Numbered from the stretch's first letter, positions 3,708-62,242 are shown. The stretch is 64,000 bases of DNA from Bacillota bacterium (GCA_013178415.1 JABLXA010000003.1:815-64814); one strand, 5' to 3'. Notes: generated by a model not told the origin, from the sequence alone. A program made the numbers and translations.

Positions 3708-3779
3708 GAAAATAGCGGCACCCGCTTCGGGGGATTCTCATCCCTCTGATGGTGCTGCCATGGCGGCATGGGCGCCTCC
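3708..3779 (+). repeat. dispersed palindromic element family A, copy 1
   Basis: gaaaatagcggcacccgcttcggggg-attctcatccctctgatggtgctgccatggcggcatgggcgcctcc, near-identical to copies at 27.6, 29.6, 31.5 and 62.2 kb. Confidence 0.7.
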
Positions 3780-3931
3780 ATTGAAGTTTGGCGCGAGGGA
3801 TTCACCAGCTTTCAAAGGCCCGTCACGCAAGCGCCGGCGCCGGCAGCCCTTAAGACCGGCCACCCCTAAAACCGGCGGTCCTTCAAATTGAAAGGGCCGG
3901 GCTACGTACCGGAATAGTCGGCGGCAGGCCA

Positions 3932-4762
3932 TCATTGCCTGAGGAAGTTAACGAGCACCTTCCACTCCGGAAGAACATCCAGGGCGCTCTCTGGATTACT
4001 AATAATCCAGTCCCTGATACGCTCCCGGAATCGACCAGCATCTACACCATAAATCCGATTAAGCGCCGGTCCCAGAGCATAAAGGATGTCCTTCCCAGAG
4101 AACCAGACCAGGATATTCTCCCAGTTGGCACAGAAATCCTCGGTAAACTCAGCTATTTTACTTTCGAGTGAGCATGCTGATGTATGTGGCGATAAGGACT
4201 CGCTCACACGGTTCATGTATTCTGCTATGCACCCCAACGCCCATTCACCACATTGAATCTGATTTAACCAGGACGGTATTCCTAACTCGCGACCCTCCAG
4301 TTCAATAGGGCGGGTCTTGAGCTCATAGTGGGGAGGCAAAGTACGCCTTGCCATTCCAATAGTCCAACGCGCTGCCTCATAGAACCGGATCCTGAGAGCT
4401 GCCTCAATAAGGGCTGCTTCATAATCCTGACGCGCACCTGATGGCCAAATGAGAGCGATGAGGGCAGGGTCCAGGAGATAGTTCTCGATTTCATGCCGAC
4501 TCCAGTACCATCCCAGAGGCTCGGGAAAACGACCGTCCCTGATCTCGCCGGGCATATGATCCTGGTTAGGAGCAGGGTCAAAGTCGAAATCGCGATCGCG
4601 GACAAATGCTACACGCTGTCCAGTTCGTTTCCATTCTTGAACGGCAATGGGCTTGAGGGAGTATTTCGAACCCCGCGCCTCTACCGGAGGGGTGCCTTTC
4701 AGGATAGCGCCAAGGATATTAGCATCAAGATTACCCTCAACCAGAAGGAGGTTTACAGGCAT
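3932..4762 (-). CDS. DUF4435/OLD-type Toprim-like protein (AriB-like putative nuclease effector)
   Basis: N-terminal LLLVEGNLD (Toprim glutamate), RDRDFDFD (DxD), downstream HEIENYLLDP. Overlaps the upstream ATPase gene by 10 nt. Confidence 0.55.
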   Translation of the reverse strand: MPVNLLLVEGNLDANILGAILKGTPPVEARGSKYSLKPIAVQEWKRTGQRVAFVRDRDFDFDPAPNQDHMPGEIRDGRFPEPLGWYWSRHEIENYLLDPALIALIWPSGARQDYEAALIEAALRIRFYEAARWTIGMARRTLPPHYELKTRPIELEGRELGIPSWLNQIQCGEWALGCIAEYMNRVSESLSPHTSACSLESKIAEFTEDFCANWENILVWFSGKDILYALGPALNRIYGVDAGRFRERIRDWIISNPESALDVLPEWKVLVNFLRQ

Positions 4763-5859
4763 AGTCGTCCCCCCTTAAGGCGCATCTTCGAAGTCTCCGG
4801 GACAATATCGTCCAGATATTTCGAATGGGTCGTCACGATAAACTGGCAATCAGGCGCCAGTCTAGGGAGATTGCCATACAACGCCTGCTGTTCTGGGGGA
4901 TGTAGATGAAGCTCTAATTCATCTAAAAGAACTATGGATTTCACGATCTCAAGCCGTGTCATCTCATAGGCTAATGGAAAAACCGCCTGTTCCCCTGACG
5001 ACATCTCGGCAATGTCGTATGGGATGCTACAACCTTCGCGCTCAACCAGCACCAGGAAGTCAGAAGGGCCTGGAGCCTCAATTCCTTTTCTGGGTTCCGT
5101 TCCTACGAATCGGAAGCCTGGAAAAACCCGCTCCATGCGCTGCTGAAGCAAATGGATGTAGTCTCGTCCGCCAGGATCTGATCCTGGCCACGCCTTCCTC
5201 GTAAGGTGATAACTCCACCATACAACGAGATACGAACGGAGTTGCTCCACCCCCGCCGACCATGCGCCTGGTTTGGCTATTCCATTAAGATCAGGGTCGG
5301 TCGAAAGAGTGCCCAGATTCCTGAACTGATCAAACCAGAAGACATCCCCAACTCGTGCAAAGTCGCTGCGGAGGTCGGGCTTGATACGCTGAACACGCTT
5401 TAGATAGTACCGGCCGAGGAACTGCATTTTTGCCGCCGGCCCTTGCCGTGCCGTTACTTCGCCCCGGCTATACTGCAAAGTGACAGTCTTCGATTCCCCC
5501 GGGGGAATCCAACCGCGGGTTTCTTCTTTCGGAATCGCACTTTTACATTCCTCGTAGAGTCTGCGAGTCACAAGGATCTCATCATCGTCAAAGCCCACCT
5601 CTAGCTCGATGCGAGTCGGCCCAAGCGAATTCATTCGCTCAGGGATAAAACCATACCAGGGGAAGCTCTCAGGGTCTTTAACATGCCGCGTTGCTATCCC
5701 CAGAGTAAGCGCAATTGCCTGAAGCAGGGTTGTTTTCCCGGACCCGTTATCGCCCAGGATTAGAAGCCTGTCGCGGACCGATCCCTGTGCATCGCGAAAA
5801 TCCAGATCCAGCTCTCGCAGACCTTTAAACCGTTCTATATGTGCGCGTAGTAGCCTCAC
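4753..5859 (-). CDS. AAA_21/ABC-type ATPase (AriA-like)
   Basis: Walker A LILGDNGSGKTTLLQAI, signature-like EMSSGEQ, Walker B/D-loop IVLLDELELHLHP. Confidence 0.7.
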   Translation of the reverse strand: MRLLRAHIERFKGLRELDLDFRDAQGSVRDRLLILGDNGSGKTTLLQAIALTLGIATRHVKDPESFPWYGFIPERMNSLGPTRIELEVGFDDDEILVTRRLYEECKSAIPKEETRGWIPPGESKTVTLQYSRGEVTARQGPAAKMQFLGRYYLKRVQRIKPDLRSDFARVGDVFWFDQFRNLGTLSTDPDLNGIAKPGAWSAGVEQLRSYLVVWWSYHLTRKAWPGSDPGGRDYIHLLQQRMERVFPGFRFVGTEPRKGIEAPGPSDFLVLVEREGCSIPYDIAEMSSGEQAVFPLAYEMTRLEIVKSIVLLDELELHLHPPEQQALYGNLPRLAPDCQFIVTTHSKYLDDIVPETSKMRLKGGRLCL

Positions 5860-6159
5860 TCCCAGTTCACCCCTTCTCCTTCAAGGTGATTCCGCATGGA
5901 TCCCAGGCTATCACAAGCCAAATCTGTCATGCCGACTTCTGATGGCCTATTGAGGGGCAAGAGGGGCAGCAGCCTATTTTTACAGTATGGCAGAATCATC
6001 CACAACCACGCATCACGCCCCGCACCAGAGGACCTACACTCATTATATATTAGATTCGCGTACTGGCACAAGCAGGAAGTTCATCACTTCATCATTTCAC
6101 CATCCGCTCCTAATATGATAGAATCTCCTTGAACTCTTCTGCGAACGGGGGGAATTACC

Positions 6160-6699
6160 ATGGAACTCGTGGTTAACGGGACTCTACTCCGCTTCATTCG
6201 AGGAGACATAACCGCACAGGAGACCGACGCCATAGTCAATGCCGCCAATTCAAGCCTTATGGGTGGCGGCGGGGTGGATGGGGCGATACATAGAGCTGGT
6301 GGGCCGCAGATCCTTGAGGAATGCAAAAAGATCCGCCGGGAGAAGGGGCCTTGCCCGCCTGGAGAGGCGGTCATAACAACAGGAGGAATGCTCAAAGCCC
6401 GGTATGTGATTCATACTGTCGGCCCGATCTGGCAGGGCGGGGATCGCGGAGAGGATCAAATTCTCGCCAGTGCATACCGGAATAGCCTGAAGCTGGCAAA
6501 GGGCCATGGGATACGCACCATCTCATTTCCTTCAATCAGCACAGGGGCCTACCGTTTTCCAATAGAACGGGCCGCCAGGATAGCTCTCACCACCGTAAGG
6601 GAATTCCTGGCCGCTGAAGACGGGTTCGACGAAGTGCGATTCGTCCTGTTCAGCGATGCAGATTTAAGGGTTTATGAAGAAACGGCAACCGCGGAATAG
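6160..6699 (+). CDS. macro domain protein (O-acetyl-ADP-ribose deacetylase, YmdB-like)
   Basis: [34 protein letters not shown], canonical macro domain motifs; 179 aa. Confidence 0.85.
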
Positions 6700-6843
6700 G
6701 ACCGGGGCAACGGGATGTGCCTTACACCCGCCCCGCCAGCTACATCTGCCGCGCCAACTACACCCGTCCCGCCAGCCATTAAAATTCGAGTGAGTCGGCG
6801 GACAGGAGCTTTGACAGGCTTCTGGCCTGCGCTCCCCCAAACA

Positions 6844-6886
6844 TTGACTGATATGTCCGCTATGTTCATAATATATCTGAGAGGTG
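6844..6886 (+). promoter_or_regulatory. putative sigma-70-type promoter, palindromic operator-like box and RBS of the vapBC-1 cassette
   Basis: TTGACT - 17 bp - CATAAT, then gaggtg RBS 7 nt before ATG 6894. The core atatgtccgc[t/c]at[g/a]ttcataatata recurs at 12839-12865. Confidence 0.5.
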
Positions 6887-6893
6887 ATGGAAT

Positions 6894-7133
6894 ATGCCCG
6901 TGGTCCGAATTGGCAAACGTGGGACCATGATACTGCCTGCCGGCATTCGCCATAAAATGGATATCCGACAGGGGGATGAAATGCTTGTCGAAATGGATGA
7001 GCGGGGGACCCTTCACATGATGAAAAAGCCCAAGGATTTTGCAGCCGCGCTCCGTAACTTGCACAAGGACATATGGGAGGGAATAGACCCTATTCAGTAT
7101 GTGAGAGAGGAACGGGCTTCATGGGAAAAGTAG
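6894..7133 (+). CDS. vapB: AbrB/MazE (SpoVT-AbrB) family antitoxin
   Basis: MPVVRIGKRGTMILPAGIRHKMDIRQGDEMLVEMDE, a swapped-hairpin AbrB fold signature. Overlaps the downstream PIN gene. Confidence 0.7.
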   Translation: MPVVRIGKRGTMILPAGIRHKMDIRQGDEMLVEMDERGTLHMMKKPKDFAAALRNLHKDIWEGIDPIQYVREERASWEK

Positions 7134-7576
7134 CCGGCTTACTCGAGAACTGCAGGTACATCGGAATCGATACTAATTGCTTTATTTTTCAGTTCGATAG
7201 TGACCATTATCCCCAGCAAGCTCCTCTCGCTCAGGAGCTGTTCGAACTGGTACAATCCGGCAGGATAAAGGCAATCACTTCGCCAATAACAATTACCGAG
7301 ATTATGACCCTTCCGCGCCGACTGGGATTGGAAGATGTCGCATATCAGTATAAACTGCTCCTGATGAATTTCCCCAATCTCGAGATCCAGGACATCACTG
7401 CTGAGGTAGCAGACCGTGCGGCGTTTTTGCGGGGAGTTTATAATCTCAAGACGCCGGATGCTTTGCAGTGTGCCGCAGCACTCGTGGCGGGAGCAGATGC
7501 TCTTGTGACTTTTGACAGGGGTATGTCCAGGGTGCAACCGGCCCTCCAAGTAATAGTCCTGGATGTCGATCCATGA
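7121..7576 (+). CDS. vapC: PIN-domain toxin VapC
   Basis: IGIDTNCFIF at the start with later conserved acidic residues. Start trimmed to Met at 7121 (the track ORF starts at 7073) to give the typical TA overlap. Confidence 0.7.
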   Translation: MGKVAGLLENCRYIGIDTNCFIFQFDSDHYPQQAPLAQELFELVQSGRIKAITSPITITEIMTLPRRLGLEDVAYQYKLLLMNFPNLEIQDITAEVADRAAFLRGVYNLKTPDALQCAAALVAGADALVTFDRGMSRVQPALQVIVLDVDP

Positions 7577-7603
7577 TTCAGCTGTTCAGGTATGGAATAA
7601 ACA

Positions 7604-7654
7604 TGGCCGCTGAAGATGGATTTGACGAGGTGCGGTTCGCCCTGTTCAGCGATG
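7604..7654 (+). repeat. degenerate duplicate of the macro-domain gene 3' end (6609-6659)
   Basis: 51 nt with 45 identical; all 6 differences are transitions and the encoded [11 protein letters not shown](V/A)LFSDA is preserved. Confidence 0.75.
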
Positions 7655-7869
7655 CCCACTCCGCCGGCCGAATTCGACAGGCAAGAGATGCCGGGAGTAC
7701 CATTTACAGGATGGACAATCTATTGACGAACTCTGCACTTCCGCCAAATCTCCTTTTGTATCCTCTGGGTCGCTCGTCAGTAGACCACCTGGTACATAAT
7801 TCGGGATTTTACACATCTTGCCGCTCTCATTCCGATGTGTTATCTTCACCTTATGGATGGTGAGAATTC

Positions 7870-10800
7870 GTGATTTTGCACGGGACATGGATTCCTCTGC
7901 TGGGAAGAGGCGGTGCAGGCGGCGACAGCAACGTGGCGGCCCTCACGTCGCACAACATAAACTATTCAGACATAGAAGGATGTTTTTTTGTCTGGGGAGA
8001 GCGCTCTCCAGCTGCGACTGTCGATAGCCAGGGCGTGGCCGGGGCTTCCACTAACTCTTATGTGTTACATGGCCAGGCAGAGAAGTGGGACACAAGGGCT
8101 GGGACGGACACAAGGGGTGGGGATAAGGATTCATCGCGGTATCAGCCCCTTCGGTGCCATCCTTTCCAGGCCTCACGGAATGATTTGGTCGACGCGCTCC
8201 GGCACCTTGCCGGACTCAGGCTCCGTGACCTGGACGGCGCCGCGCGGAGGGCGCGCGTAGTGATGTTCCTGCCGTCAAGGGGCGAACGTCCCGAACCTTC
8301 CAATTCTTTTATCTTGGAATCGCCGCAGGATTCCATGAGCGCGGGCCAGCACGATCCCGCGGGCCAGAACGATCCTGGGGACCGGGATGATCCCGCAGGT
8401 CAGGATGATTCCGGAGAGGAATCTCGCGCGGGACAAGCTACCGCGGGAGGGGTTCCTTCAGGTGAAGTTGCCATGGGCCGGACGGCCGCCGAAAAGGCGA
8501 CCCTCGCTCCCTGGGAGGTCAGCGGAATCGCACTCCCCGCTTCCAGTGCGCTGAGATTCCTGGTTATCTTATCACAGAGTGATGGCATGAGTACTGGGCC
8601 TGGTGACGGTGGGCCTAGCGACGGCTGGCCTGGTGATGGCTGGGATGACGCCGCCGGCGACCTCGATAAGTCTCAGGTTTCAACCGGCCAGGATATAAGG
8701 TTTTGGAGCAAGGTGGCCAAGCTCGCCCTTGAGCTCATGGCGCGGGAAAGGTTTTCCCCCACAGTGGTCAGCGCGCAGTCAACCATCCTTAAACATGGTG
8801 CCGGTTCTGGTGACAGCATGGCGGCGGCCTGCCACGACGACGCTCCGGCCCCTGACGTCTCCGGCGTCCGTGGCATCCCCGGCCGCAGCGCCGGCAAAAG
8901 ATCGAAGCATCGCAGGGGCAATATCAGGAGCAACAAGAAGGATGCTACTGCCGCAGAGGACGAGACGAGATTTAGAGCCACCTGGCTTCCTGTCTTAAAT
9001 ACCGCTGGCGATGTGGAGCGTCTTCAATCACTTCAGGAGTCCATGCCAGCCATATGCAGGGCGATACCGGTCCTCGAGTCATCTGTCCCCGAAGCTCGCT
9101 CCTTGTTGATGAGCTTCCTGGACACATGTGTGGATGAGATGGTCCGGGAGTGGATTTCGACAGAGTCGCGCAAGGGTCATGAGGAATGGCGCAGGGATCA
9201 CGAAACCAATGCTCGCAGGATCGGGACCCGCGAGACCTATAAGGATGACTATTTCCTGAATAGGGAGCTGCGCAGGCATTTCCTGGATAAACCGAAAGCA
9301 AGGAAGGGCGGCACAGTAGCTGGCAACTGGCTCTCGGGTCTCACCTCTGATGAAGTGCTCCTCAAGGGGCCGACCCGGGAAATCAAGGAATTCTGCCGTG
9401 CGATTTCGGACTGGTCGCAGGAGATACGCGGGACCGGAGCCAGAGCGGCATTTCGGACCTGCTTCCGCCTGGAACCGCCGGCGGAGGCGGATGCTGAGAT
9501 GGGGGAAACGCCCGCGAAAGTGGGGGGAAGCGATTCGTCGCAGCCATCATCGCGTGCATCATCGCGGTCGTCCCCGCGGTCGTCGAAGGCTCCCGTAGAG
9601 CTTGATGGAGGGCTCTGGCACCTGCGGTTTCTCCTCCAGGCCGTGGATGACCCGAGCCTCCTGATCCCTGCGGAGAGGGTATGGCAGGAGCAAAAGCGAA
9701 CTCTGGAATTCATGAACCGCCGGTTTGAGAATCCGCAGGAAAGACTCCTTCACGACCTGGGCCGGGCTTCGCGGCTCTTTCCAAAGATAGAAGAGAGCCT
9801 CAAGACAGCCTGCCCTGAAGCGTGCCAACTTACGGTCCATGAGGCATACTCCTTCCTGCGGGACGTGGTCCCGGTCCTGGAAGAGAGCGGGTTTGGGGTA
9901 CTGGTCCCCGCCTGGTGGAATCCCAACGGTAACGGGCCGGCGCGCCTGGGCATCAGGCTGCGGCTCGTCAGTAAAGAGAAAAGAAAGACCAGCAGCCGGA
10001 AAGATACTGTGATCGCCAGCCAGGGCAACCTCGGTCTCGACAGCCTCATCAACTATGACTGGCAGGTTGCCCTCGGCGGGCAGGTGATGAGCCGGGAGGA
10101 ATTTGAGAGGCTTGCGGCGCTGAAGGTGCCCCTTGTCCGCATCAGGGGCGAATGGATCGAGCTGAGGACTGAGGACATCGAGGCCGCCATATGCTTTTGG
10201 GAAAACCGCGGGAAGGCCGGGCAGATGAGGGTCCGTGAGGCTCTTGCGCTGGCCCTTGCCGGTGATAACGGCAGCCACGGCTTGCCCGTGGTTGGGGTGG
10301 ATGCTGAGGGCCGTATCGCAGATCTCATCCAGCAGCTCAAGGACGGGGAAAAGGTTAGCGAGCTCCCTCAGCCTTCAGATTTGTCGGGTCAACTCAGGCC
10401 TTATCAGATAAGGGGCTATTCATGGCTTTCGTCCATGTCTCGTTGGGGGCTCGGAGCATGCCTTGCCGATGACATGGGACTCGGCAAGACCATACAGGTG
10501 ATCGCAATGCTGCTCCGCGCAAAAGAGGAAGGTCGCGCCCAGGGTCCGGCTCTGCTCATCTGCCCCACGTCTCTCGTGGGCAACTGGAGGCATGAGCTTG
10601 CCCGCTTCGGGCCTTCTCTCCGGGTGATGATTCATCATGGAGGAGGAAGGCTTACAGGATCAGAATTCGTGAAAGAAGCCATGGCAAACGATATAGTTCT
10701 CAGCACCTATACGCTTGCTCATCGCGACGAGAAGGACCTCTCCAAGGTGGAATGGGGCGCCATTATCCTCGATGAGGCGCAAAACATAAAGAATTCAGCC

Positions 10801-11829: not shown

Positions 11830-11838
11830 GCGCGCACC

Positions 11839-15145: not shown

Positions 15146-15369
15146 TGGTCTAACTCCCCCCTCCCGGGCTTTGACCGCATCTAAGTATCTAACTGGAACT
15201 GGAATCGCATAACCGCAACTACACTACTATTGTATCACATTTTGGGTGTAATTGGAAGCCGTGGGCGAACGTGGAAGCCATGGCCGGACGCGGTAATCAG
15301 AGATCCGGCTAAACAATGGCGCCAACACCTCTAGCTGGAGCCGTAACAGACGTTATTTGGCGGAAATAG

Positions 15370-15713
15370 TGTTAGTGGCCAGCACTATCCGCCGGGAACA
15401 ATGTTAGTAGCCAGCATCGTCCAGCGGAGATAATGTTAGTGGTTAGCATCGTCCGGCGGGGACAATGCTAATGGCTAGCACTGTTCGTCAGGAACAATAT
15501 TACTGGCTAGCACTATCCGGCGGGGACGATGTTAGTGGCTAACACTGTCCGCCGGGAACAATGCTAATGGCTAGCATCGTCTGCCAAGGACAGTGTTAGC
15601 AGCTCGCATCATCTGCCGGGGTAGTGTTAAAGGCTAGCATCGTCCGCAGAAGATAATGCTAATAGCTAGCACTATCTCCCGCCGACAGTGTTAATAGTTA
15701 ATAGTGTATTGCA
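15370..15713. repeat. tandem array of ~11 degenerate 32-bp units, each with a short inverted repeat (array B1)
   Basis: Units like GTTAGTGGCTAGCACTATCCGCCGGGAACAAT; TAGTG...CACTA arms around GCTAGC; no constant-repeat/variable-spacer partition. Confidence 0.8.
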
Positions 15714-23181: not shown

Positions 23182-23395
23182 TTACGATCCCCTCTCCCAA
23201 ATAAGACAGATCCATTCGCACTTTACTTTCTCGAGTCAGACTGGTTCATTCGCGTTTTCCTCTCCCGCATCAAACACAGATTCATTCGGACATTCCGCTC
23301 CCAAACCAGACAAGTCTATTTGCGCCTTCCTATCCCGAATCAGACTGGCCCATTCGCGCTTTCCCCTCCCGAATCAAACGCGGCTATCCGCTCAC
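23179..23395. repeat. ~6 degenerate tandem 36-bp repeats in the helicase / Zn-ribbon intergenic region
   Basis: Consensus CATTCGCGYTTTCCYCTCCCGAATCARACRCAGAYT repeated from 23179 to 23395. Confidence 0.7.
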
Positions 23396-25965: not shown

Positions 25966-27555
25966 CTATGCCATTCTCAACGTAAACCAAAATTCCGTCC
26001 CATGCCCTGCTTCGCTTGAGGCGCCAACCTCACCTCCATGAGATTCGATGATCCTTTTCACGATAGAAAGGCCAATACCAGTCCCGACTCCCTCTTCGCG
26101 GCTCCTGGCTTTATTCACCTTGTAAAACCTGTCCCAGATATATGGAAGGTCCTCGCGTGGAATTCCCCGACCAGTGTCCGTTACGCTCACGCGGACGAAT
26201 CCGCGCGCTGATTCACTCCCCTCAGCAATTCTTGCTGACAATGTTATGCTTCCACCCCGTGGAGTAGCGTGAATCGCGTTATTGATCAAGTTAGACAGAA
26301 CCTGCTCTATCCTGTCGCCGTCAGCCATCACGGGAGGCAGATCCGGGGGCACATCATCGACCATGGAGATGCCAGATTCAGAGACCTTGAGCGCCAGCTT
26401 TTCCAGAACACTTTCAACCACTTCTTTAATATTGAGCGGGCTGAATTCCATCTTTGCCTTTCCCGCCTCGATACGCGATAGGTCAAGCAAATCCTCGAGG
26501 AGCCGGTCTGTACGGATCGATTCATCCCGAATGAGTCTAAGATATTTCTGCCGCTGTTCGTCGCTTTGAACCGTACCATCGGTGAGCGCCTGAGCAAAGC
26601 CGCGTATGGCAGTGAGCGGCGCCCTTAATTCATGTGAGACATTTGCGATGAATTCACGACGATTTTCTTCGATGCGGCCGAGTTCCTCCGCCATGTGATT
26701 GAATGAATGGGCGAGCTCGCGAATTTCGTCGCCCACAGGATTTGATGGATTTCCTATATAGGGTAATTCCTCCCGGCTCGCGAAATCGCCTCGAGCCATT
26801 CGCACCGCGATTTTACTCATCTGGCGAATAGGCCGGGAGACATGGCGGGAGATGGAATAGCCCAACCCCAGGGCGACGATTAGAGCCAGCAGGCCCGCAT
26901 AGGCAATAAATCGCATGAGTTGGTTCGAGGTGGCGATTATGCCGGTAACCGGTGAATGAAGGATCAGGGCGCCCACCACTTCACCATCGCGTTTGATTGG
27001 AATGCCCACTGAAATCACTTGACGCGTGATTGGCGGGGACGGGGACGGCGCCACCCCGTCTGGTGGGCCCATGCGGCCCGGGCCGGGAACAGGAGGCCCC
27101 ATGCGATGTGGTCCAGGACTGGGGCCGGGGCCACGACCATACGGGCCCATGCGGCCCTCCTCGGGGAGCGGCAGCTGAGCGCGCCGCACGACAGTCTCGC
27201 CGGCCAAGATGCGTTCCACCTCATCGGAACTCAGCCTCATCCCGCGAAATCTCCCCCTGCCAGGGCGAGATGTGGCCACAACTAATCCGGTCCTATCCAC
27301 AATCCAGGCCCGCGCATTCACAAAGGTATCAAGGGCATCCAGTATCCGCAGTGTGGTGGCTTCACTTTCCCTGCCCTCAAGGAAATCGCTTGCGATATTG
27401 GCAATCTCCTGTCCCTTAGTTACGAGCTCACGTTCCTTAGAAGTGATGAAATAGCCTTGAATAAGGCGAGAAAGGGTTATAGCGGGAATACTCAATGCAA
27501 CGACGATGACTACGATATATGTGATAAGAAGCCTTGCGAAAAAACTCTTAGGCAA
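25966..27555 (-). CDS. sensor histidine kinase (HAMP-HisKA-HATPase; CpxA/BaeS-like)
   Basis: HisKA box VSHELRAPLTAIRGF; N/G boxes LINNAIHATP and DTGRGIPREDLPYIWDRFYK...GTGIGLSIVKRIIESHGG; two TM segments. Confidence 0.9.
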   Translation of the reverse strand: MPKSFFARLLITYIVVIVVALSIPAITLSRLIQGYFITSKERELVTKGQEIANIASDFLEGRESEATTLRILDALDTFVNARAWIVDRTGLVVATSRPGRGRFRGMRLSSDEVERILAGETVVRRAQLPLPEEGRMGPYGRGPGPSPGPHRMGPPVPGPGRMGPPDGVAPSPSPPITRQVISVGIPIKRDGEVVGALILHSPVTGIIATSNQLMRFIAYAGLLALIVALGLGYSISRHVSRPIRQMSKIAVRMARGDFASREELPYIGNPSNPVGDEIRELAHSFNHMAEELGRIEENRREFIANVSHELRAPLTAIRGFAQALTDGTVQSDEQRQKYLRLIRDESIRTDRLLEDLLDLSRIEAGKAKMEFSPLNIKEVVESVLEKLALKVSESGISMVDDVPPDLPPVMADGDRIEQVLSNLINNAIHATPRGGSITLSARIAEGSESARGFVRVSVTDTGRGIPREDLPYIWDRFYKVNKARSREEGVGTGIGLSIVKRIIESHGGEVGASSEAGHGTEFWFTLRMA

Positions 27556-27608: not shown

Positions 27609-27740
27609 GGTGGTCCCTCATGCCGCCATGGCAGCACCATCATGGGGATGAAAATTCCCCGAAGTGGCCACCGCTATCTTCTGGGTCGACGCCCATGCTG
27701 CTGCTGCGGCACCATCAGAGTAATGAAAACCGCGGCGCGC
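27609..27740 (-). repeat. family A dispersed element, two tandem copies (A2, A3), inserted between the HK and RR genes
   Basis: Reverse complement reads catgcgcgccgcggttttcattactctgatggtgccgcagcagca...aattttcatccccatgatggtgctgccatggcggcatgaggg. Confidence 0.7.
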
Positions 27741-27829
27741 ATGTTCAGGGTAGTATCGCAGGGGACCCCCGGATAATCGGCTCGCCCCCGCGGACCAATG
27801 GCCATCCGATATGCGCCTCCTCGCCAGGT

Positions 27830-28582
27830 CTACTCCAACAACTCAAACTTATATCCCACACCCCAGACAGTCTTTATCCGCCAGGGGCGCTGCTCACCCG
27901 GTTTCGGCGCCAGCTTTTCCCTGATCCTCTTTATATGAACATCCACGGTGCGGTCATCCCCATAAAAATCTTGGCCCCACACATGCTGGATCAGCTGTTC
28001 TCTGGTAAAAGCTTTCCCAGGATTGCCGGCAAGAACCCATAACAACTCGATCTCTTTTCTGGTGAAAGGAACTACCTCGCCTTCAACCCTCACTTCGTAT
28101 TCAGAAAGACTCACAGAAAGGGATGGGTAATTGATGACCTTATCATCGGGGCGGGTCTGCGCGGAAGGCCAGTCAGACTGGCGCGCTCGCCTCAAAACAG
28201 CCTTGACCCTCGCGACAAGTTCAATTGGGTTGAAAGGCTTGGCCACATAATCATCAGCGCCCAATTCGAGCCCCAGGATCTTGTCATGATCCTCGGACTT
28301 TGCCGTGAGCATGATTATCGGAAGCCCAGGTTCATCTTCCCTGAGACGCTTCAATACCTGCCACCCATCAAGATCCGGCAACATCACATCGAGTATGACA
28401 AGCACCGGAACCTGATCTCGCGCTTTCTGAATAGCCTCTTGGCCATTCTTAGCACTCGTGGTGGAAAGCCCCTCCTTTTCCAGATAGAGTCTGAGGAGCT
28501 CCAGCACATTTTCATCATCATCAACCAGCAAAATCTGCGGAATTCCCGCCTCTCGCGGGGTTCCTACATCGATCGTATTCAC
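27830..28582 (-). CDS. OmpR-family response regulator
   Basis: Receiver domain LLVDDDENV...ILDVMLPDLDG...LTAKSEDHD, plus the winged-helix C-terminus LTRKEIELLWVLAGNPGKAFTREQLIQHVWG. Confidence 0.9.
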   Translation of the reverse strand: MNTIDVGTPREAGIPQILLVDDDENVLELLRLYLEKEGLSTTSAKNGQEAIQKARDQVPVLVILDVMLPDLDGWQVLKRLREDEPGLPIIMLTAKSEDHDKILGLELGADDYVAKPFNPIELVARVKAVLRRARQSDWPSAQTRPDDKVINYPSLSVSLSEYEVRVEGEVVPFTRKEIELLWVLAGNPGKAFTREQLIQHVWGQDFYGDDRTVDVHIKRIREKLAPKPGEQRPWRIKTVWGVGYKFELLE

Positions 28583-29046: not shown

Positions 29047-29547
29047 TGACGAATATGGCGTCACCGCTGAACGCAGACTGGCGAATGGCGAAACCATCGC
29101 CGGCCCTGCCCTCATCCTGGCCAGAATATCGCCAGCTTTGCCTTCAGCCTGGCCAGAATATCGCCAGCTTTGCCTTCAGCCTGATCGAAATATCGTCACC
29201 TTGACCCAATATATACCATAAAGTGTATTATACTGGATAATTATATCCTTGAATTTTCCAATTTGGACATGAGGTGGCGAAGATTTCGCCATCCGGGAAC
29301 GAAGACTGGCGGCATTGCCGCCACTTCTCAACGAAACCTGACGAAATTTCAGCCACCTGTAGATAACGCAGACCCAGGATCTCCCAAAATCGACTTGACC
29401 TGACGACCATTTCGCCATTTCTGAGAGGAGATTGCCGGAATTCTCGCCATCTTCACACAGGACCTGCCTAAAAACACGTCACCCCCGATTTGAGGTGGCG
29501 AGGAATTAGCCATGTCTGTCCAGAAAGTGATGGGATTTTCGCCAGCC
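29047..29547. repeat. tandem array of ~14 units (~32 bp) with a TGGCGA-N4-6-TCGCCA hairpin core (array B2), in two blocks
   Basis: For example tggccagaatatcgccagctttgccttcagcc repeated exactly twice; gaggtggcgaagatttcgccatcc; tgatgggattttcgccagcc. Confidence 0.8.
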
Positions 29548-29584
29548 CATACTTTTGGATAGACCCCCGTACCACCGCGGTAGC

Positions 29585-29680
29585 GCCATCGGAAAGGTGA
29601 AACCCCCCAAGGCGGGCGCCGCTGTCTTTTGGCTAGTCGTCCATGACGCCGGGGCGGCGCCAACGAGGGATGAAAATGGT
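29585..29680 (-). repeat. family A dispersed element, copy A4
   Basis: Reverse complement ccattttcatccctcgttggcgccgccccggcgtcatggacgactagcc aligns with copy A6. Confidence 0.6.
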
Positions 29681-30045
29681 AGCCGTCTATTCCCAGGGCA
29701 GTTTTCCGTTGGACATCCACGATATCAAAACTCATGGAAGGCACCGGGGACCTCTCAAATCCGCCGGAGACCCCAAGGGTACGCCAATGCTCGCTAATCC
29801 GATGCAGAATGCCTCATCTGACGCTAATCAAGCGGTCCCGGGCCGCCCGCCTGCAAGGCGCATAGATAAAGGCTTCATCTTACATCTTTCCTTTAAACTC
29901 CCTGTAAGATTCATCCTTCTTTCTTCTTTTCTTCAAGCTTTCTTCATAATCTCCTGATACAATGAAATTGGCGCGAGACACACTATGGCTGATTGGTGTG
30001 GCCAAGTGAACGCGCAAAGCATTTCAAGAAAGGAGTCAGGTATCA

Positions 30046-31417: not shown

Positions 31418-31519
31418 CTGAACATCTCTCTCCTAATAGACCCCGCACCGGAGGCATACATTACCTACCGATAGCCGGGCGCGCCCTTCTAACCCGAAAA
31501 TACCGGGATGGCAGCCCAG

Positions 31520-31650
31520 GAATTTTCATCCTTCTGATGGTATCGCTGCAGCGGCATAGAGGGCTACTTCGAAAATAGCTGAGCGCCATTTTCATTTTTC
31601 GTTGGTACCGCCCCGGCGGCATGGAGGGCTACCCCGAAAACTAGCGCCCC
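31520..31650 (+). repeat. family A dispersed element, two tandem copies (A5, A6)
   Basis: ggaattttcatccttctgatggtatcgctgcagcggcatagagggctacttcgaaaatagc; gccattttcatttttcgttggtaccgccccggcggcatggagggctaccccgaaaactagc. Confidence 0.7.
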
Positions 31651-31775
31651 ACGTCATCCCTACTCTAATAGCCAGACTCACGCGCCATTCTATGCCGGTA
31701 ACCGGAGCTATATGCCATGCCCGGTAATCGGAGCCATATGCTATGTAACGCCGGCAATTTGACCCATATGCCATC

Positions 31776-33368: not shown

Positions 33369-33456
33369 GCCGAAGTGGCGGAACTGGCAGACGCACGCGA
33401 CTCAAAATCGCGCGGAGTGACCCTCCATGGGGGTTCGATTCCCCCCTTCGGCACCA
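33369..33456 (+). tRNA. tRNA-Leu (anticodon CAA) with long variable arm and encoded CCA
   Basis: Acceptor GCCGAAG/CTTCGGC; anticodon stem CGCGA/TCGCG with loop CTCAAAA; long extra arm; TpsiC GGTTCGATTCC; 3' CCA. Confidence 0.85.
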
Positions 33457-39483: not shown

Positions 39484-39488
39484 CCTTT

Positions 39489-56099: not shown

Positions 56100-56356
56100 A
56101 CATATCTCCCCCTTATCTTAAGCCTAATTCTTGCTCCGTTCCACTTTTCCTGCCTCAGGACGAAGCTGCAAAAGGCAAACTTAGGCAACACTATGGTACC
56201 ATTGACTACTGTACACGAATTCTTCTCGTCTTATGCCTTATGCCTTATGCCTGATGCCTCTCGCTCTATGGCTTCTTCTCGCGCATAGAAAACATCAAAA
56301 AGATCTAATACTAAATGTTGACGCAGGTCAAGTAATTTCTATGAGGAGGCGACAGA

Positions 56357-56680: not shown

Positions 56681-56692
56681 CGGGGAGAACGG

Positions 56693-56935
56693 GGATGGTG
56701 ATACCGTCCCATCGGACGCGGCATGGCTAGGTGATGGTGGTATCGTCCCATCGGACGCGACCTTGCAGCAGGTCGCTCTGTGATCCGAGGACCTATACCT
56801 TGAGGGCCGAGGACCACCGAGCAGCCTCGCAGCAAGGCTGCGTCCGGCGTAAGGGATACCGTTGCGCCCCAGCGCGGCTATGCTGCGTCCGCCGGGAGGA
56901 GTATCCATAATCCATACCCCGGCCATGCCGCGTCC
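56693..56935. repeat. short tandem repeats preceding array B3
   Basis: gatggtg(a/g)ta(c/t)cgtcccatcggacgcg x2; gc(t/c)gcgtccg(n)cg...ggat x3. Confidence 0.6.
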
Positions 56936-56964
56936 GAGCGCGGGGATGAGTTGGTGGTTACCGA

Positions 56965-57463
56965 GAGTGGTGAGTTTTTAGGCAGGTCTCTGGGGAGAGT
57001 GGCAGGTTTTTAGTCACCTTAAACTGGGAGTGGCAAGTTTTTGGGCAGGTTACGTGCGGAAGTGACTAAAAATCCGTCAGCCTAGACCAATGGTGACGAG
57101 ACTGTAGGCAGATTCCCCTTAGAAGTGGCTAAAAATCTGTCAGCTTCCTCGCTGGGGTGGCGATATTCTCGCCAGGTCGGGATGGTTTTAGCAAAGTCTG
57201 GGTCAAACTCACCTTGAGGTGGCTGAAATTTAGGCAAGTTTCGCTCAAATGTGGTCAAGATTTCGCCAGCCCCGGGTCTGGGGTGGCAGATTTCTCGCCA
57301 CCTTCCCCTTAGATTGGAAAATTATAGGCTATGATTATCCATAAAAAGGAACTTTATGGTATATATTGGCTGGAGGTGGCGATACTCTAGCCAGCCTGAA
57401 TGCAGAGGTGGCTGGGATCTTACCAGCCTCCGCTTTCAAGTGGCGAAAATCTAGCCAGCTCAG
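56965..57463. repeat. tandem array of ~14 units (~33 bp) with GTGGC-N-TTT-GCCAG hairpin cores (array B3)
   Basis: Units such as ggggtggcgatattctcgccaggtcgggat, ggggtggcagatttctcgccaccttcccctta, gaggtggcgatactctagccagcc; same family as the 29.0-29.5 kb array. Confidence 0.8.
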
Positions 57464-57610
57464 CCCATGAGACGCAATATCGCACCGCATATTCCAAGTT
57501 TGAGCTTGTATGTCTCTCTTATATGTCCGAAGTACAGTTTTCGAAAGCATTATTAGCACAGCGATTCATGCTCTCTATTTGTTATTTGAATAGAAAGGAT
57601 CAAACCAGAA

Positions 57611-58618
57611 ATGACATCTCAAACCATACCCCAGGAAGCTAGCTTTGACCAAAAGCTGGCCTTTCATTTGTTGCACCCTAGATTACCAGCGGTTGAAAGG
57701 CGTCTGCTAGAGATAGTGGGCAGTGACAAGAGCCCTGCAGGTGAGCTTGCGGCCATCGTGGTGAAGGCCGGAGGGAAGCGAATACGACCCGCATTGACCC
57801 TCATCTCGTCTGATTTCTTCAAAGACAATTGTGACCATGAGATGACCATTGATGTGGCCTCGGCCATAGAATTGATCCATATGGCGTCCATCGTTCATGA
57901 TGATGTCATAGATGGGACCAGTTATAGGCGGAAGAATCGAACACTAAATGCCGCATTCGGAAATCATGTTGCCATTCTTGCAGGCGATCTCTTTCTTTCC
58001 AAGGCATTAGCGATTCTGAGCAGCCATAAAAAGTATGAGATAATCAATATATTGGCAGAGACTGTGACATACATGTCTGAGGCTGAAATAGAGCAATCGC
58101 TGCGGGCCTTTAATGATAAGGTGACAGAGGCTGAATATAATCAATATATCGGCAAGAAAACGGCGCACCTCATGGCGGTATCATGTTATGCAGGTCTGCT
58201 GGCAGCCGGGGCCTGTGAGAAAGCGATGTCTCATATGTGGCACTACGGCTATTATATGGGCATCGCCTTTCAGATAATAGATGATACCCTGGACCTCGTC
58301 GGGGACCAGAAGACCATGGGGAAAACCATTTGGCAGGATCTCCCCTCTGGCATTATCACTCTACCGGTTATCAAAGGGCTGAGTCACCCCAAAGCAGGCC
58401 CATTTTTATCGAAACTCATTCATTCACGAAAGTTTGATCATGAGCGGATGAACAGGGTGCGAGAGATCTTGTTGGAAATCGGGGCGATAGAGTATGCGCG
58501 TGAACAAGCCCGCTCTTACATAAGGTCTGCTCAGGAAAGGCTCATGTTGATGCCACCATGTGAAGCGAGAAACAAGCTATTTGCCATATCGGAGCTTAGT
58601 TTACAAAGAAATGCGTAG
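57611..58618 (+). CDS. trans-polyprenyl diphosphate synthase (hepta/octaprenyl-PP synthase type)
   Basis: First DDxxD IVHDDVIDG, second FQIIDDTLD. Confidence 0.85.
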   Translation: MTSQTIPQEASFDQKLAFHLLHPRLPAVERRLLEIVGSDKSPAGELAAIVVKAGGKRIRPALTLISSDFFKDNCDHEMTIDVASAIELIHMASIVHDDVIDGTSYRRKNRTLNAAFGNHVAILAGDLFLSKALAILSSHKKYEIINILAETVTYMSEAEIEQSLRAFNDKVTEAEYNQYIGKKTAHLMAVSCYAGLLAAGACEKAMSHMWHYGYYMGIAFQIIDDTLDLVGDQKTMGKTIWQDLPSGIITLPVIKGLSHPKAGPFLSKLIHSRKFDHERMNRVREILLEIGAIEYAREQARSYIRSAQERLMLMPPCEARNKLFAISELSLQRNA

Positions 58619-58675
58619 CAGCCAACCCCAGGATAGTCCTGGGGAAAAGGAGATGCAGACGCAGGGGACCGCCTG

Positions 58676-59845
58676 CTACACGACTCCGGCAGTCCTGAAA
58701 AGCTTTACAAAGGCTCTGGTGATGAACGCCTCCGGGCCTATCTGGTCAAAGAAATGTTCTGACGCTTCTTCAAGCCCCTGGGCGCTGACCTTTCTATCGG
58801 AAAGATAAAGGGCCAGCAACCCCTTTACAACAGTTGTGTGGAATGAAGCAAAAGAAAGCCGGGATGCCCGGCGAAAGCCCTCATTTACAAAGAGACTCAA
58901 TCTCTCACGGCACTCCTCCTGATTTTTGTAGTAGCTCACGAAATTCAGGTCACCGCCCTCTTCATCCTCCCTCTGGTCAATGAAATAATCCAGCAGGATG
59001 TGCAAGCCAGCTATCCAGGGGAAATAGGCTTCGATTAGACTCTGAACATCCCTGTTTTGCAGTCCTTTTAGCGCAGAGGCCGCTATCAGAGCAAAGATCC
59101 CGAGAGTCGACCCGCACGCTGCGGCAAATTCCCACCATCGAATGTCTCTGAGGGTGAACTCTCGTCGATGTACATCTATGGATCTATCTGCATATTCATC
59201 ATACCACCGGATGAGAAGGGATTCACGGACGCTCAGATCAGCATGTTTCTTGATCTGCAGGTCACAATAAAGCCTTGTAAATTGAATAACTTGAGGTTTC
59301 ACCTTCTCATAGGAAGGTAGATGCTTGAGCTGGTTCTTACATTCCTCTACAAGTGAAACCAGATAGCCACCATCATTCTTATGGGGATAAAGGCGATAAT
59401 AGTCCCTATCAAGACTCGGGCCATCTGGCTGCATGGAATCAGCAGGCTCGAGCGCATCGAGCATGGAGCAATGGAGGGCGCTGAAAGCATTCTCATCATA
59501 GCAGCCAGCTCTATCACACAAATTGTCCAGGTAATCGCTGATGGTCTGAAAGGCCACTATAAATCTGACAATATGGTATAACTGGTCTAATGCAAACGAA
59601 AAGTTGGAATGACCCAGGGTGAACAGAGGATAGGCTGCATATACGGAACCTCCTTGTGCATGAAACCGTTTATGGAGTATACTGGACCTGCCAAGATCGC
59701 GTAAAACTATATTAGGACAGGAATTCAGCCCGGTCCTCCACCTTTTGAGTTCGCGGTCTACTGCGGGAAGTATGCGAAACGCCATGGTGAATATGATATC
59801 CAGCTCAGCAAGGAACTCTCTGACCGACAAAATATCACCATCCAT
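58676..59845 (-). CDS. DUF2600/YtpB-like protein (tetraprenyl-beta-curcumene synthase family) - tentative
   Basis: Size, all-alpha composition and similarity to Bacillus YtpB recalled from memory; convergent with the polyprenyl synthase gene. Confidence 0.45.
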   Translation of the reverse strand: MDGDILSVREFLAELDIIFTMAFRILPAVDRELKRWRTGLNSCPNIVLRDLGRSSILHKRFHAQGGSVYAAYPLFTLGHSNFSFALDQLYHIVRFIVAFQTISDYLDNLCDRAGCYDENAFSALHCSMLDALEPADSMQPDGPSLDRDYYRLYPHKNDGGYLVSLVEECKNQLKHLPSYEKVKPQVIQFTRLYCDLQIKKHADLSVRESLLIRWYDEYADRSIDVHRREFTLRDIRWWEFAAACGSTLGIFALIAASALKGLQNRDVQSLIEAYFPWIAGLHILLDYFIDQREDEEGGDLNFVSYYKNQEECRERLSLFVNEGFRRASRLSFASFHTTVVKGLLALYLSDRKVSAQGLEEASEHFFDQIGPEAFITRAFVKLFRTAGVV

Positions 59846-59994
59846 TACTTGACATTCCTAAAACCTGGCTATGGCAGGCCCGCTTAGCCTAAGCAGGCTC
59901 CACATTAGATTCCCCGGGATAGCAAGGCTTATTCATGGTTATGGCGCGCATTTAAATTTAATCCATACTATATAGGATCAGGAGGTTTTCATAG

Positions 59995-61686
59995 ATGTCC
60001 GACCAGAATGAGATTGAGATAACGATTATGATGCCAGGCGAAGTAAAACGCCGCGTGCCACGGGGCATAACGATCCAGGAACTGATCAGGCAAGACATGC
60101 CGGCCCCAAAGGTCCCAGTGGTAGCGGCAAAGATTAACAACGATCTTGTCGAGCTTACAGCAAGACTCAATGAGGACTCAAAGGTCGAATTTGTGGATAT
60201 GAGCTCTGAAGATGGCATGAGAATCTACAGGCGCAGCGTCGTCTTTGTGTTGATCAGGGCTGCCCGTGAAATTCTCCCAGGATGCAGGGTGAGAATCGAG
60301 CATTCTCTTGCCAACGGGTTATATGGCGAGATTTTCTGGAAGCGCCCCCTCACGGAAAAGGACGTGAGTAATATAGAAGCCAGGATGTGGAAAATAGTTG
60401 AAGAAGATGTGCCGTTTGAGAAGAGCCGGATTTCCAAGGAAGAGGCCATAAAGCTATTTCACGAAGATGGGCAAGATGATAAGGTGCATCTACTCAAATA
60501 CAGGCAGGCGCCAACAGTAAACATTTATAAGTGTGGCTGGCTGCATGACTATTTCTATGGTTACATGGTACCGTCGAGCGGATACCTGAGATATTTTAAG
60601 CTGAGATTCTACCTGCCAGGTTTTATCATCGAGTTCCCGAGGATAGAGGACCCTACGACCATCCCCCCCTATGTGGAACAAGGGAAACTTGCAGGGGTAT
60701 ATTTCGAGGCAGAAAAATGGGGTAATATTCTCAAAGTCGCAAATGTGGCATCGTTGAATGATGTTATACTTTCTAAAGATGTCGGGATGCTCATACGGAC
60801 GGCAGAGGCTTTTCATGAGAAGAAGATAGCAAGGATAGCGGATATGATAACACAGGATAGGGACAGGCTGAGAGTGATCCTCATCGCAGGGCCATCTTCG
60901 TCCGGCAAGACAACATTTGCGCAAAGACTGATGGTAGAGCTCAGGGTAAATGGCCTCGATCCCGTGTCAATTTCACTGGACGATTATTTCGTTGACAGGG
61001 AAAAGACTCAAAAAGGAAACGACGGGAAGCTCGACTTTGAATCCCTGGAGGCCATAGATATCGCCTTATTCAATGAAGATCTGACGCGACTCATTCAGGG
61101 TGAAGAAATTCAGGTGCCAAGGTTCAACTTCCTTGAGGGCCGCCGTGAATATCGAGGCGAAACTCTGAGAGTCTCAAGGGATCAACCTATAATAATCGAA
61201 GGTATCCACGGGCTAAATGACAGGCTGACTCAATCCATTCCAAAGGGTCGGAAATTCAAGATCTATGTGAGCGCGCTCACTCAATTGAATATCGATGACC
61301 ACAACAGGATCCCCACCACAGATGTCCGGCTCATCCGCAGGATCGTAAGGGACAACAAATTCCGTGGACACAGCGCCGCCAACACCATCCAGATGTGGCC
61401 GATGGTGAGACGCGGAGAGGAAAGGAATATATTCCCATTTCAAGAAGAAGCGGATATCATGTTCAATTCAGCATTACCATATGAATTAGCGGTTCTCAAA
61501 ACACATATCAGTCCCCTGCTGGAAGCTATCGGAAAGGATATGCCAGAATACAGCGAGGCAAAGAGGCTGCTCAAATTTTTGAACTATTTTATCGCCATAG
61601 ACGACGATGAAGTGCCTCAGAACTCCATCCTTCGTGAATTCATCGGGGGAAGCTGTTTTTATCGGGATATCGAGAAGGCGTCATAG
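59995..61686 (+). CDS. TGS/ThrRS-N-domain protein fused to a uridine kinase/phosphoribulokinase-family P-loop domain
   Basis: N-terminal TGS-like beta-grasp plus second additional domain; C-terminal ILIAGPSSSGKTTFAQRL Walker A with a PRK/Udk-like fold. Confidence 0.7.
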   Translation: MSDQNEIEITIMMPGEVKRRVPRGITIQELIRQDMPAPKVPVVAAKINNDLVELTARLNEDSKVEFVDMSSEDGMRIYRRSVVFVLIRAAREILPGCRVRIEHSLANGLYGEIFWKRPLTEKDVSNIEARMWKIVEEDVPFEKSRISKEEAIKLFHEDGQDDKVHLLKYRQAPTVNIYKCGWLHDYFYGYMVPSSGYLRYFKLRFYLPGFIIEFPRIEDPTTIPPYVEQGKLAGVYFEAEKWGNILKVANVASLNDVILSKDVGMLIRTAEAFHEKKIARIADMITQDRDRLRVILIAGPSSSGKTTFAQRLMVELRVNGLDPVSISLDDYFVDREKTQKGNDGKLDFESLEAIDIALFNEDLTRLIQGEEIQVPRFNFLEGRREYRGETLRVSRDQPIIIEGIHGLNDRLTQSIPKGRKFKIYVSALTQLNIDDHNRIPTTDVRLIRRIVRDNKFRGHSAANTIQMWPMVRRGEERNIFPFQEEADIMFNSALPYELAVLKTHISPLLEAIGKDMPEYSEAKRLLKFLNYFIAIDDDEVPQNSILREFIGGSCFYRDIEKAS

Positions 61687-61885
61687 AGTCGATAAGGGCG
61701 ATCCCGTTCCATGGAAAAGTCTAACGGAAAAGAAGGAATAAGAAGATGCGCGGAGAAAATATTGTCCGGCTATAGACATCTTTGATCCGTGTAGTATAAT
61801 CTGTCTGGGTGCGGTATATATTAATCAGCCGATGAGCAATAGACTACAGTCTGCACCGTGTACACTCATTTGGAGGGATCTAGCG

Positions 61886-62074
61886 ATGAAAGTTGAAGTG
61901 GACCAGGATCTGTGCATCAGTTGTGGCGCATGCATTGATACCTGCCCGGAAGTATTTGACTGGAATGATGACGAAAAGGCCTCTTCCAAAGTGGATGAAG
62001 TCCCCCCGGAAGTAGAGGATGCGTGCCGCGAGGCGATGGAGGGGTGCCCTACCGAAGCTATCAAAGAAGTATGA
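61886..62074 (+). CDS. single-cluster [4Fe-4S] ferredoxin
   Basis: CISCGACIDTCP...CREAMEGCP; RBS ggaggg lies 8 nt before ATG 61886 (the track ORF starts at 61832). Confidence 0.8.
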   Translation: MKVEVDQDLCISCGACIDTCPEVFDWNDDEKASSKVDEVPPEVEDACREAMEGCPTEAIKEV

Positions 62075-62180
62075 TTGGCGTTACATAGTGATCGGATCGG
62101 TGAAAAATAAAGGGCGACGGTGTTCCGTCGCTCCATTTAATATCTAGTATTGTTGATCCAACTATGCTCTACTTTACCCT

Positions 62181-62242
62181 GAAAATGCGCGCCGCGGTTT
62201 TCATCCTTCTGATGGTGCCGCCGCAGCGGCATGAAGGTCTAC
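62181..62242 (+). repeat. family A dispersed element, copy A7
   Basis: gaaaatgcgcgccgcggttttcatccttctgatggtgccgccgcagcggcatgaaggtctac. Confidence 0.7.

Follow-up and report, generated by a model that had tools for sequence, protein, structure and literature searches.

A 64-kb window of the genome of a Bacillota bacterium (contig JABLXA010000003.1; "the window" refers throughout to this whole stretch of 64,000 nucleotides) carries a dispersed family of short palindromic repeats, the units of which appear from sequence comparison to be the left terminus of an IS110-family insertion sequence (IS) joined to its right terminus. We judge it highly probable, at roughly 85%, that the copies are left end-linker-right end derivatives of an IS110 element that have lost the recombinase and bridge RNA, were mobilized in trans, and are now most likely fossils. 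This reading is carried by the homologous termini, the exact unit boundaries, the bridge RNAs of full-length relatives and the intermediates of internal deletion that we observe. The repeats are relics of mobile elements that have decayed; they are neither genes nor peptides, and neither regulatory RNAs nor a host-specific family of repetitive extragenic palindromic (REP) sequences.

Results

The repeats share both termini with IS110 elements

Read on the strand opposite to that used in the initial annotation of this DNA, each unit begins with ACNNNC (6 nt), continues with a hairpin module (ATGCCGC-N4-GCGGCA-CCATCAGAAGGATGAAAAT) and a linker of 11-21 nt, and closes with a right end of 13 nt, ATTTTCAGGGTAG. 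The family had been thought genome-specific. A relaxed-pattern scan of one genome per species, however, recovered 104 loci, none of them overlapping the window and nearly all in Bacillota, with the same termini occurring from Bacilli to Moorellia and Desulfotomaculia. Carriers are Bacillus and its relatives, Paenibacillus, Siminovitchia, Desulfotomaculum, Desulfosporosinus and Peptococcaceae, as well as Syntrophomonadaceae, Neomoorella, Heliobacterium and Dethiobacter. Several matches lie at contig ends or on contigs of ~1.6 kb with about twenty-fold coverage, such as a collapsed Siminovitchia contig of 1,596 bp that has ~20x the coverage of its neighbors.

At 15 distinct loci, the module is followed after 25-60 nt by a non-coding RNA delimited by GGCTGG...CCAGCC, and then mostly by an open reading frame (ORF) of ~406 amino acids. 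The product of the ORF is a transposase of the RNA-guided IS110 type: it scores 268-288 bits with NF033542, for which the cutoff is 140, has the Pfam domains DEDD_Tnp_IS110 and Transposase_20, and resembles the IS621 structure 8wt6 (E 4.5e-18). The reverse complement of the core sequence by which the repeats were originally recognized is located about 230 nt upstream of the recombinase start codon, and the full-length element ends in ...ATTTTCAGGRTAG, ~1.55 kb downstream of the left-end module. Full-length elements of this size are present in Bacillus, Siminovitchia, Paenibacillus, Alicyclobacillus and Desulfosporosinus, and their termini bracket both the two-loop bridge RNA and the DEDD recombinase gene.

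A profile of the left end that was built from 15 bridge-RNA-bearing copies in other genomes, and that includes no window sequence, recovers all seven copies reported previously in the window (E 5e-15 to 2e-4). The right terminus is also in place, since every window copy carries a ATTTTCAGGGTAG-like 13-mer 11-21 nt past the module, on the correct side and in the correct orientation, and the same 13-mer closes the 1.55-kb elements. The units had been likened to MITEs (miniature transposable elements with inverted repeats). This likeness is apt in that they are non-autonomous IS derivatives, but it fails in that they have neither terminal inverted repeats nor a classical target-site duplication, because the parent is an IS110-family (bridge-RNA) element. 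The two ends, ACNNNCATGCC... and ...CAGGGTAG, share only an internal GAAAAT/ATTTTC complementarity, and a check of the flanks revealed no direct target duplication; what lies to the left of a copy looks like the element's right end.

Bridge RNA and boundaries of the full-length element

At 12 Siminovitchia contig ends, the module and IS body are identical and the flanks are unrelated immediately 5' of TTAGAC. Similarly, a complete plasmid of Alicyclobacillus dauci (NZ_CP104065.1) carries two identical copies with differing DNA outside ..TTAG|AC and ..GGATAG|. The fold of the non-coding RNA consists of a closing stem (GGCTGG/CCAGCC) plus two stems with internal loops, and 9 of the pairs are compensated. 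One loop strand repeats the copy's own left flank over 10 nt at loci L008 and L015, 9 nt at L064 and L085, and 7-8 nt in A. dauci, and this match has a mean of 7.2 for own flanks versus 5.3 for mismatched pairings. The second loop carries AGGRTAGA, which corresponds to the right end extended by one base, the first of the left end. By the logic of target and donor loops known from IS621 (PMC11208160), the RNA behaves as a bridge RNA; together with the flanks of the Siminovitchia and A. dauci copies, this places the hairpin inside the element. Because the loop matches sequence to the left of the hairpin, strand exchange takes place outside it, on that side.

These observations bear directly on an alternative in which the units are host REP-like palindromes that serve as a preferred landing site for an IS110 element, their likeness to the IS termini arising because the IS is only ever seen inside a unit. 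There are parallels for such behavior in the use of REP sequences by IS621, ISPpu9 and ISPpu10, and IS110 elements are reported to target REP hairpins (PMC12288879; preprint 10.64898/2026.03.19.712850). Moreover, the left flanks of many copies are right-end-like, and full-length Bacillus copies stand right after right-end-like sequences. However, the flanks of the Siminovitchia and A. dauci copies become unrelated just outside TTAG|AC and GATAG|, no empty unit was matched in Siminovitchia, and the right flanks of full-length copies have no hairpin. The bridge-RNA guide, furthermore, varies together with the sequence that it matches to the left of the hairpin. The divergence of the flanks and the logic of the guide thus leave a REP-like target unsupported, and we consider this explanation largely refuted and improbable.

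In the Bacillus group, the full-length copies at L015, L008, L001 and L061 directly follow ~50-nt right-end-like sequences of siblings (TAGTATTGCC...ATTTTCATGGTAG). The target guide of these copies is CATGGTAGAC, mutated to TATGGTATAC in L061, and the Bacillus-group IS elements appear to home to the right-end-like sequences of their relatives.

A size series points to internal deletion

The interiors found between the same termini in other Bacillota measure 5-21, 37-88, 190-330 or ~1,500 nt. In Candidatus Desulfosporosinus nitrosoreducens, one copy (L097) keeps the bridge RNA and the last recombinase codons and has lost the rest of the gene, and for a second copy in the same genome (L064) the end of the locus cuts after the start of the recombinase gene. 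The target guides of the two differ (ATCTAGGC in L097 versus ATATAGAC in L064), each tracking its own left flank. A Dethiobacter locus (L039) retains the bridge RNA and has lost the recombinase gene, and at another (L045) a 65-bp mini-element comes immediately after a degenerate recombinase 3' end with its right end. Remnants of the bridge RNA and of the recombinase 3' part are present, along with mini-elements, in Dethiobacter SURF_39. Neomoorella carbonis (L031, 57-nt interior) and N. stamsii (L093, 226-nt interior) have their copies at one and the same chromosomal position and with flanks in common, an internal deletion in situ.

Non-coding interiors of 190-330 nt fall into at least six unrelated types, all bracketed by the same left-end hairpin and right-end 13-mer, and each type is multi-copy within its genome (L027, L049, L063, L070, L093; L003/L068/L103/L104; L010/L020/L088; L005/L072/L095; L057/L075; L032/L089). 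The type found in Neomoorella and Peptococcaceae forms a single imperfect rod of ~74 bp (consensus -121 kcal/mol), and L027 has no Rfam match. An identical mini-element linker, tggtaaaacgct, is present in L047, from a metagenome-assembled genome (MAG) labeled candidate division WWE3, and in L066, from a Dethiobacter MAG of the same sample; the L047 contig is probably mis-binned Dethiobacter DNA.

Copies in the window

The seven copies initially placed at 3.7, 27.6 (two), 29.6, 31.5 (two) and 62.2 kb are all present, in both orientations and all intergenic, and the described 16-bp near-palindrome was confirmed for copies 1 and 2, as was the tandem pair between the response-regulator and histidine-kinase genes. 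The core consensus quoted for them has no literal match in the window, even with 3 mismatches allowed. The relaxed pattern TTYTCATNNNNNNGATGGTNNNGCNNNNGCNGCAT gives 5 matches versus 0.00 expected from 100 shuffles, and the remaining two copies have a 1-nt deletion each and are alignable with the other five. Repeat finding on the window returns the same family. Beyond the seven, we identified an eighth, degenerate copy that abuts the 29.6-kb copy, and a ninth, truncated unit next to a solo 13-mer like the right end (Table 1).

The units have exact boundaries and lengths of 65 or 74-75 bp, and are laid out as three head-to-tail arrays, with zero bases between units, and two singletons. Mean column identity among the window copies is 60%, and the closest pairs reach 84-87%. 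The same 11-nt linker (ccgcggcgcgc) occurs in c3 and c7, at sites 34 kb apart, and a second linker type is common to c1, c2 and c8. This sharing of linkers between distant sites implies that the mini-elements were copied as mini-elements.

The c2/c3 pair fills most of the gap between genes for an OmpR-type response regulator and a HAMP/HisKA kinase. A contig from a biogas-fermenter metagenome (L106), whose kinase is 97% identical, has kept both copies almost unchanged. In MAG AS04akNAM_35 (L107), the nearest relative in which the arrangement differs and whose kinase is 73% identical, the 124-nt spacer has no units and the junction is too diverged to align. Judged from these two kinases, the window comes from an uncultured member of the Bacillota living in anaerobic digesters. 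Metagenome scans returned 0 matches for two window-specific strings, and a scan of viral contigs with the general pattern likewise returned 0. The only public contig that encodes an identical D-Ala-D-Ala ligase (L105, Logan SRR6186653) stops 70 nt upstream of that gene, inside c7, indicating that the repeat breaks short-read assemblies.

Table 1. Units of the repeat family in the window; E is for the left-end profile, except in c8, where it is that of a weak profile match, and arrows run in element sense
Unit	Coordinates	Strand	Length (bp)	Parts and remarks	E	Site
c1	3701..3775	-	75	left end/hairpin module 3775->3734; linker 3733->3714; right-end 13-mer ATTTTCAGAGTAG 3713->3701	3.6e-9	between convergent genes; radical-SAM gene end 3623, minus-strand ORF end 3932
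c2	27614..27688	+	75	first of head-to-tail pair; right end ATCTTCTGGGTCG, degenerate	1.5e-8	274-nt gap between response-regulator (27830-28582, -) and histidine-kinase (25966-27555, -) genes; antisense to both
c3	27689..27753	+	65	begins at base next to c2 right end; right end ATGTTCAGGGTAG	1.3e-10	same gap as c2
c8	29563..29636	+	74	degenerate; full-length alignment to c1, c2 and c5; weak profile match; right end GTCTTTTGGCTAG is left flank of c4	4.5	
c4	29637..29701	+	65	head-to-tail behind c8; 1-nt deletion in module; right end ATTCCCAGGGCAG	1.7e-4	
c5	31489..31563	-	75	last in 31.5-kb array; right end ATTTTCGGGTTAG 31501->31489	7.3e-10	
c6	31564..31628	-	65	directly upstream (element sense) of c5; right end ATTTTCGAAGTAG doubles as left flank of c5	1.5e-6	
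Array remnant	31629..31673	-		solo right-end-like CTATTAGAGTAG 31673->31661; 5'-truncated unit GGATGA-cgtggggcgc-TAGTTTTCGGGGTAG 31660->31629; both read by eye		
c7	62174..62238	-	65	best preserved; ACCTTC 62238->62233; stem TGCCGC/GCGGCA 62231->62226 and 62221->62216; CCATCAGAAGGATGAAAA 62215->62198; linker 62197->62187; right end ATTTTCAGGGTAA 62186->62174	5.3e-15	36 nt upstream of, and antisense to, D-Ala-D-Ala ligase gene ddl (62274-63287, +)

Conservation of the hairpin module

The module of ~40 nt is conserved almost to the base across several Bacillota classes and is kept in every transposase-less derivative, and it stays conserved while the recombinase falls to 59% identity. Covariation was assessed on 76 distinct left ends, with only pattern-free columns counted, as many columns are fixed by the collecting pattern. 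Across this set ACCATCAG and GATGAAAAT are invariant. Compensatory changes are seen at stem pair 14-23 (C-G 46, U-A 13) and at the outer pair 8-37 (C-G 36, U-A 12, U-G 10), at both well above shuffles and above slid controls. A local CATC/GATG hairpin was considered and rejected, since the compensatory changes sit in the alternative outer pairing of columns 8-37 and 9-36. Both wobble classes, U-G and C-A, are present, and the transcribed strand is thus undecided.

Alternative functions of the repeats

As improbable as a REP-like landing site, in our estimation, is the proposal that the units now form a cis-regulatory or small-RNA family, acting as terminators, insulators or mRNA-stabilizing hairpins. 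The intergenic position of all copies would suit such a role, as would their orientation: c1 and the c6/c5 array are downstream of, and co-oriented with, a gene, and c2/c3 and c7 are antisense to an operon or gene that would otherwise be interrupted. The linker hairpin and right-end T-run are called terminator-like, in element sense, in c5 and c8 only, and the main hairpin was never called by the terminator scan in either direction. Although the stem covaries across genomes, this covariation belongs to the IS left end generally and not to the window copies, whose sequence decay argues against selection on them here. Furthermore, a scan of the window detected no promoter-like site in or beside the units. 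The idea of a small RNA family, raised in the initial annotation, also fares poorly, in that the units have no Rfam match and the folding of the window copies is not superior to that of shuffled sequence (z -2.3 to +1.6). Only a tRNA reaches the gathering threshold of Rfam 15 in the window, and at five related loci nothing relevant was found at E<=1 for either the units or the bridge RNA.

The units share with REP, BIME and REPIN sequences that they are short, GC-rich, intergenic and palindromic and occur in many copies, and they carry the tetranucleotide GTAG at a distance of a few bases from the hairpin, which might suggest a REPIN/RAYT system in which REP hairpins are moved by an IS200/IS605-like Y1 transposase. 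The resemblance is superficial. Whereas REPINs are inverted pairs tied to RAYT transposases, all three arrays here are direct and head-to-tail, and both unit ends coincide with IS110 termini, so the earlier label of REP-like does not hold. No RAYT was seen among the ORFs flanking the copies, which were the only ones scanned in a window not searched exhaustively. We consider this system very unlikely to be the source of the repeats.

Finally, the reverse-strand ATG might be taken for the start of a small conserved protein gene, since it is invariant, the first 12 codons (MPL.RHHQKDEN) resemble one another in every copy and a Shine-Dalgarno-like GGAGG precedes copy 1. Sequence comparison refutes this. 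The ATG and the codons that follow are the hairpin stem and invariant module, hypervariability is confined to the 4-nt loop, and substitutions come as compensatory pairs. The 76 distinct frames (3-93 codons) agree only over the 12 codons of the module and continue beyond them in unrelated sequence, and the GGAGG sits in the flank of copy 1 with no Shine-Dalgarno sequence conserved across copies. The frame arises by accident from the sequence of the hairpin.

Other features of the window

A second dispersed repeat of ~200-240 bp is present at ~29090-29330 (+) and ~57250-57500 (-), with 77% mean column identity. Its 29-kb copy contains three 32-nt units (ATCGCCAGCTTTGCCTTCAGCCTGGCCAGAAT), and the block CCAATATATACCATAAAGT is common to both copies; the repeat may represent a shared regulatory region. 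Two tandem repeats were also noted. One, at 15324-15705, comprises ~12 units of 32 nt with ~74% matches and a period that is not a multiple of three, and sits upstream of a 1090-aa ORF, in 545 nt that contain no long ORF. The other, at 23191-23376, has 5.4 copies of a 34-nt unit with 66% matches and is situated between two minus-strand genes. Among curated RNA families, the window yielded a single one, a tRNA with a long variable arm at 33369-33453 (Rfam tRNA, 55.6 bits). A 422-aa ORF at 764-2032, equal in length to the first ORF of the Siminovitchia IS contig, was considered as a recombinase candidate and rejected, as its sequence motifs suggest a glycosyltransferase with TPR repeats.

Discussion

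How the units might have moved is suggested by the sequences beside them. For 80 non-autonomous copies, the 13 nt of left flank agree with ATTTTCAGGGTAG at 6.9 of 13 positions, versus 3.5 in a control 30 nt upstream, and every left flank in the window is right-end-like (TTTTCNGGGTAG-type), being in the arrays the right end of the previous unit. Since left flanks resemble the right end, insertion seems to be guided to right-end-like sites. We propose that a unit of 65-75 bp, immobile alone, would be mobilized in trans when a full-length relative supplied recombinase and bridge RNA, and that this machinery would read only the short donor site made by the junction of right end and left end in a circle. 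In such a scheme ACNNNC would serve as the right-donor sequence, and the 13-nt right end as the left-donor sequence plus core. Each inserted copy would then present its own right end as a fresh target, and this renewal of the site would produce exact head-to-tail pairs and hence the tandem arrays. Trans-mobilization of this family is plausible because a 22-bp donor and a bridge RNA supplied in trans are sufficient for IS621 recombination (PMC11208160). Insertion directed by the right end would also agree with two preprints, one on IS110 loci where tandem non-coding units match the left donor only (10.64898/2026.08.14.744561) and the other on half-match recombination (10.64898/2026.08.31.748434).

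Several points weigh against an origin from a trans-mobilized IS110 element. Neither an IS110 recombinase (tblastn with three IS110 proteins) nor a bridge-RNA landmark was detected within the 64-kb window, and for the 64 kb of genome read, a cognate partner in this organism is unproven. Only c3 would give a circle junction reading AGGGTAG|A, like the donor guide of the full-length relatives (AGGRTAGA); c7 has 1 mismatch to this guide and the other copies have at least 2, and the case for mobility therefore comes from other genomes. Among the loci of histidine-kinase homologues no clean empty site was found, L107 being too diverged. The right-target and right-donor guides showed no consistent match by eye. 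In addition, the pattern with which loci were collected requires the hairpin module, so that elements with other left ends were left out, and the bridge-RNA model leaves the strict conservation of this module unexplained. Given the drift from the donor consensus and the lack of a recombinase or bridge RNA in the 64 kb, the window copies are most likely immobile now. They are probably fossils that were once mobilized in trans, and their effects on neighboring genes are most likely incidental at most.

MITE-like elements of the IS110 family, bridge RNAs and tandem non-coding units are already known, and the MITEs in ISfinder include an IS110-related entry (PMC11602168). In Pseudomonas putida, the IS110-family element ISPpu9 has a MITE-like partner, MITEPpu9, which also occurs both beside its IS and alone and is thought to be mobilized in trans via circles (PMC12288879). 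However, MITEPpu9 is much larger, carries the ssr9 small-RNA gene and resides in REP targets of a gammaproteobacterial host (PMC12288879), whereas the window units are 65-75 bp, cargo-free, found in Bacillota, equipped with a left-end hairpin and located beside right-end-like sequences. The full-length relatives follow the plan of IS621 and other IS110 bridge-RNA elements (PMC11208160, PMC11208158), in that a long non-coding left end specifies a two-loop RNA with loops matching flank and element ends, the recombinase is of the DEDD/Tnp type, the right end is short and terminal inverted repeats are lacking. They depart from it in that the target and donor left halves resemble each other and in that the ~40-nt hairpin module has not been described for IS621; the window copies differ further in lacking RNA and recombinase. 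The tandem units at expanded IS110 loci (10.64898/2026.08.14.744561) are likewise head-to-tail and non-coding, with a boundary match in the left donor half only, which their authors attribute to half-match recombination. Those units adjoin a transposase module, whereas the arrays and singletons described here are dispersed over 58 kb with no transposase nearby. Distinctive of the present family are its very small size, its conserved left-end module, the resemblance of target and donor left halves, and its spread over Bacillota classes with several unrelated rod-shaped non-coding cargos.

As hypotheses only, the module might play a role like that of the 5' stem-loop of the IS621 bridge RNA, reported to be a cis-regulatory brake (preprint 10.64898/2026.03.19.712850), or might be a cis site on the excised circle. 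Both hairpins are stable, lie near the left boundary upstream of the guide loops, and are in the path of transcription crossing the junction of right end and left end. The hairpin described here, however, is separated by 25-60 variable nt from the closing stem of the bridge RNA, has no U-tract, is not terminator-like, and shows conservation not only of pairing but also of sequence (ACCATCAG, GATGAAAAT).

Bridge-RNA recombinases are under development as genome-editing tools, and natural minimal substrates are informative in this respect. Units of 65-75 bp suggest how little cis DNA such an element needs, and the resemblance of target and donor left halves would explain their head-to-tail arrays. 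The current bridge-RNA model does not require a hairpin module of ~40 nt. A bolder proposal, which we put forward tentatively and think unlikely on balance, is that the module and the 13-nt right end together constitute a minimal, portable mobilization cassette for the bridge-RNA recombinases found in Bacillota and that the mini-elements are self-renewing landing pads, every insertion making a new target that is right-end-like. If so, the hairpin would be an obligatory cis site outside the RNA-read donor, where it would load the recombinase or a host factor, or prime the complementary strand on a single-stranded circle. IS110 insertions, together with diverse rod-shaped non-coding cargo, would in that case be channeled into harmless intergenic arrays.

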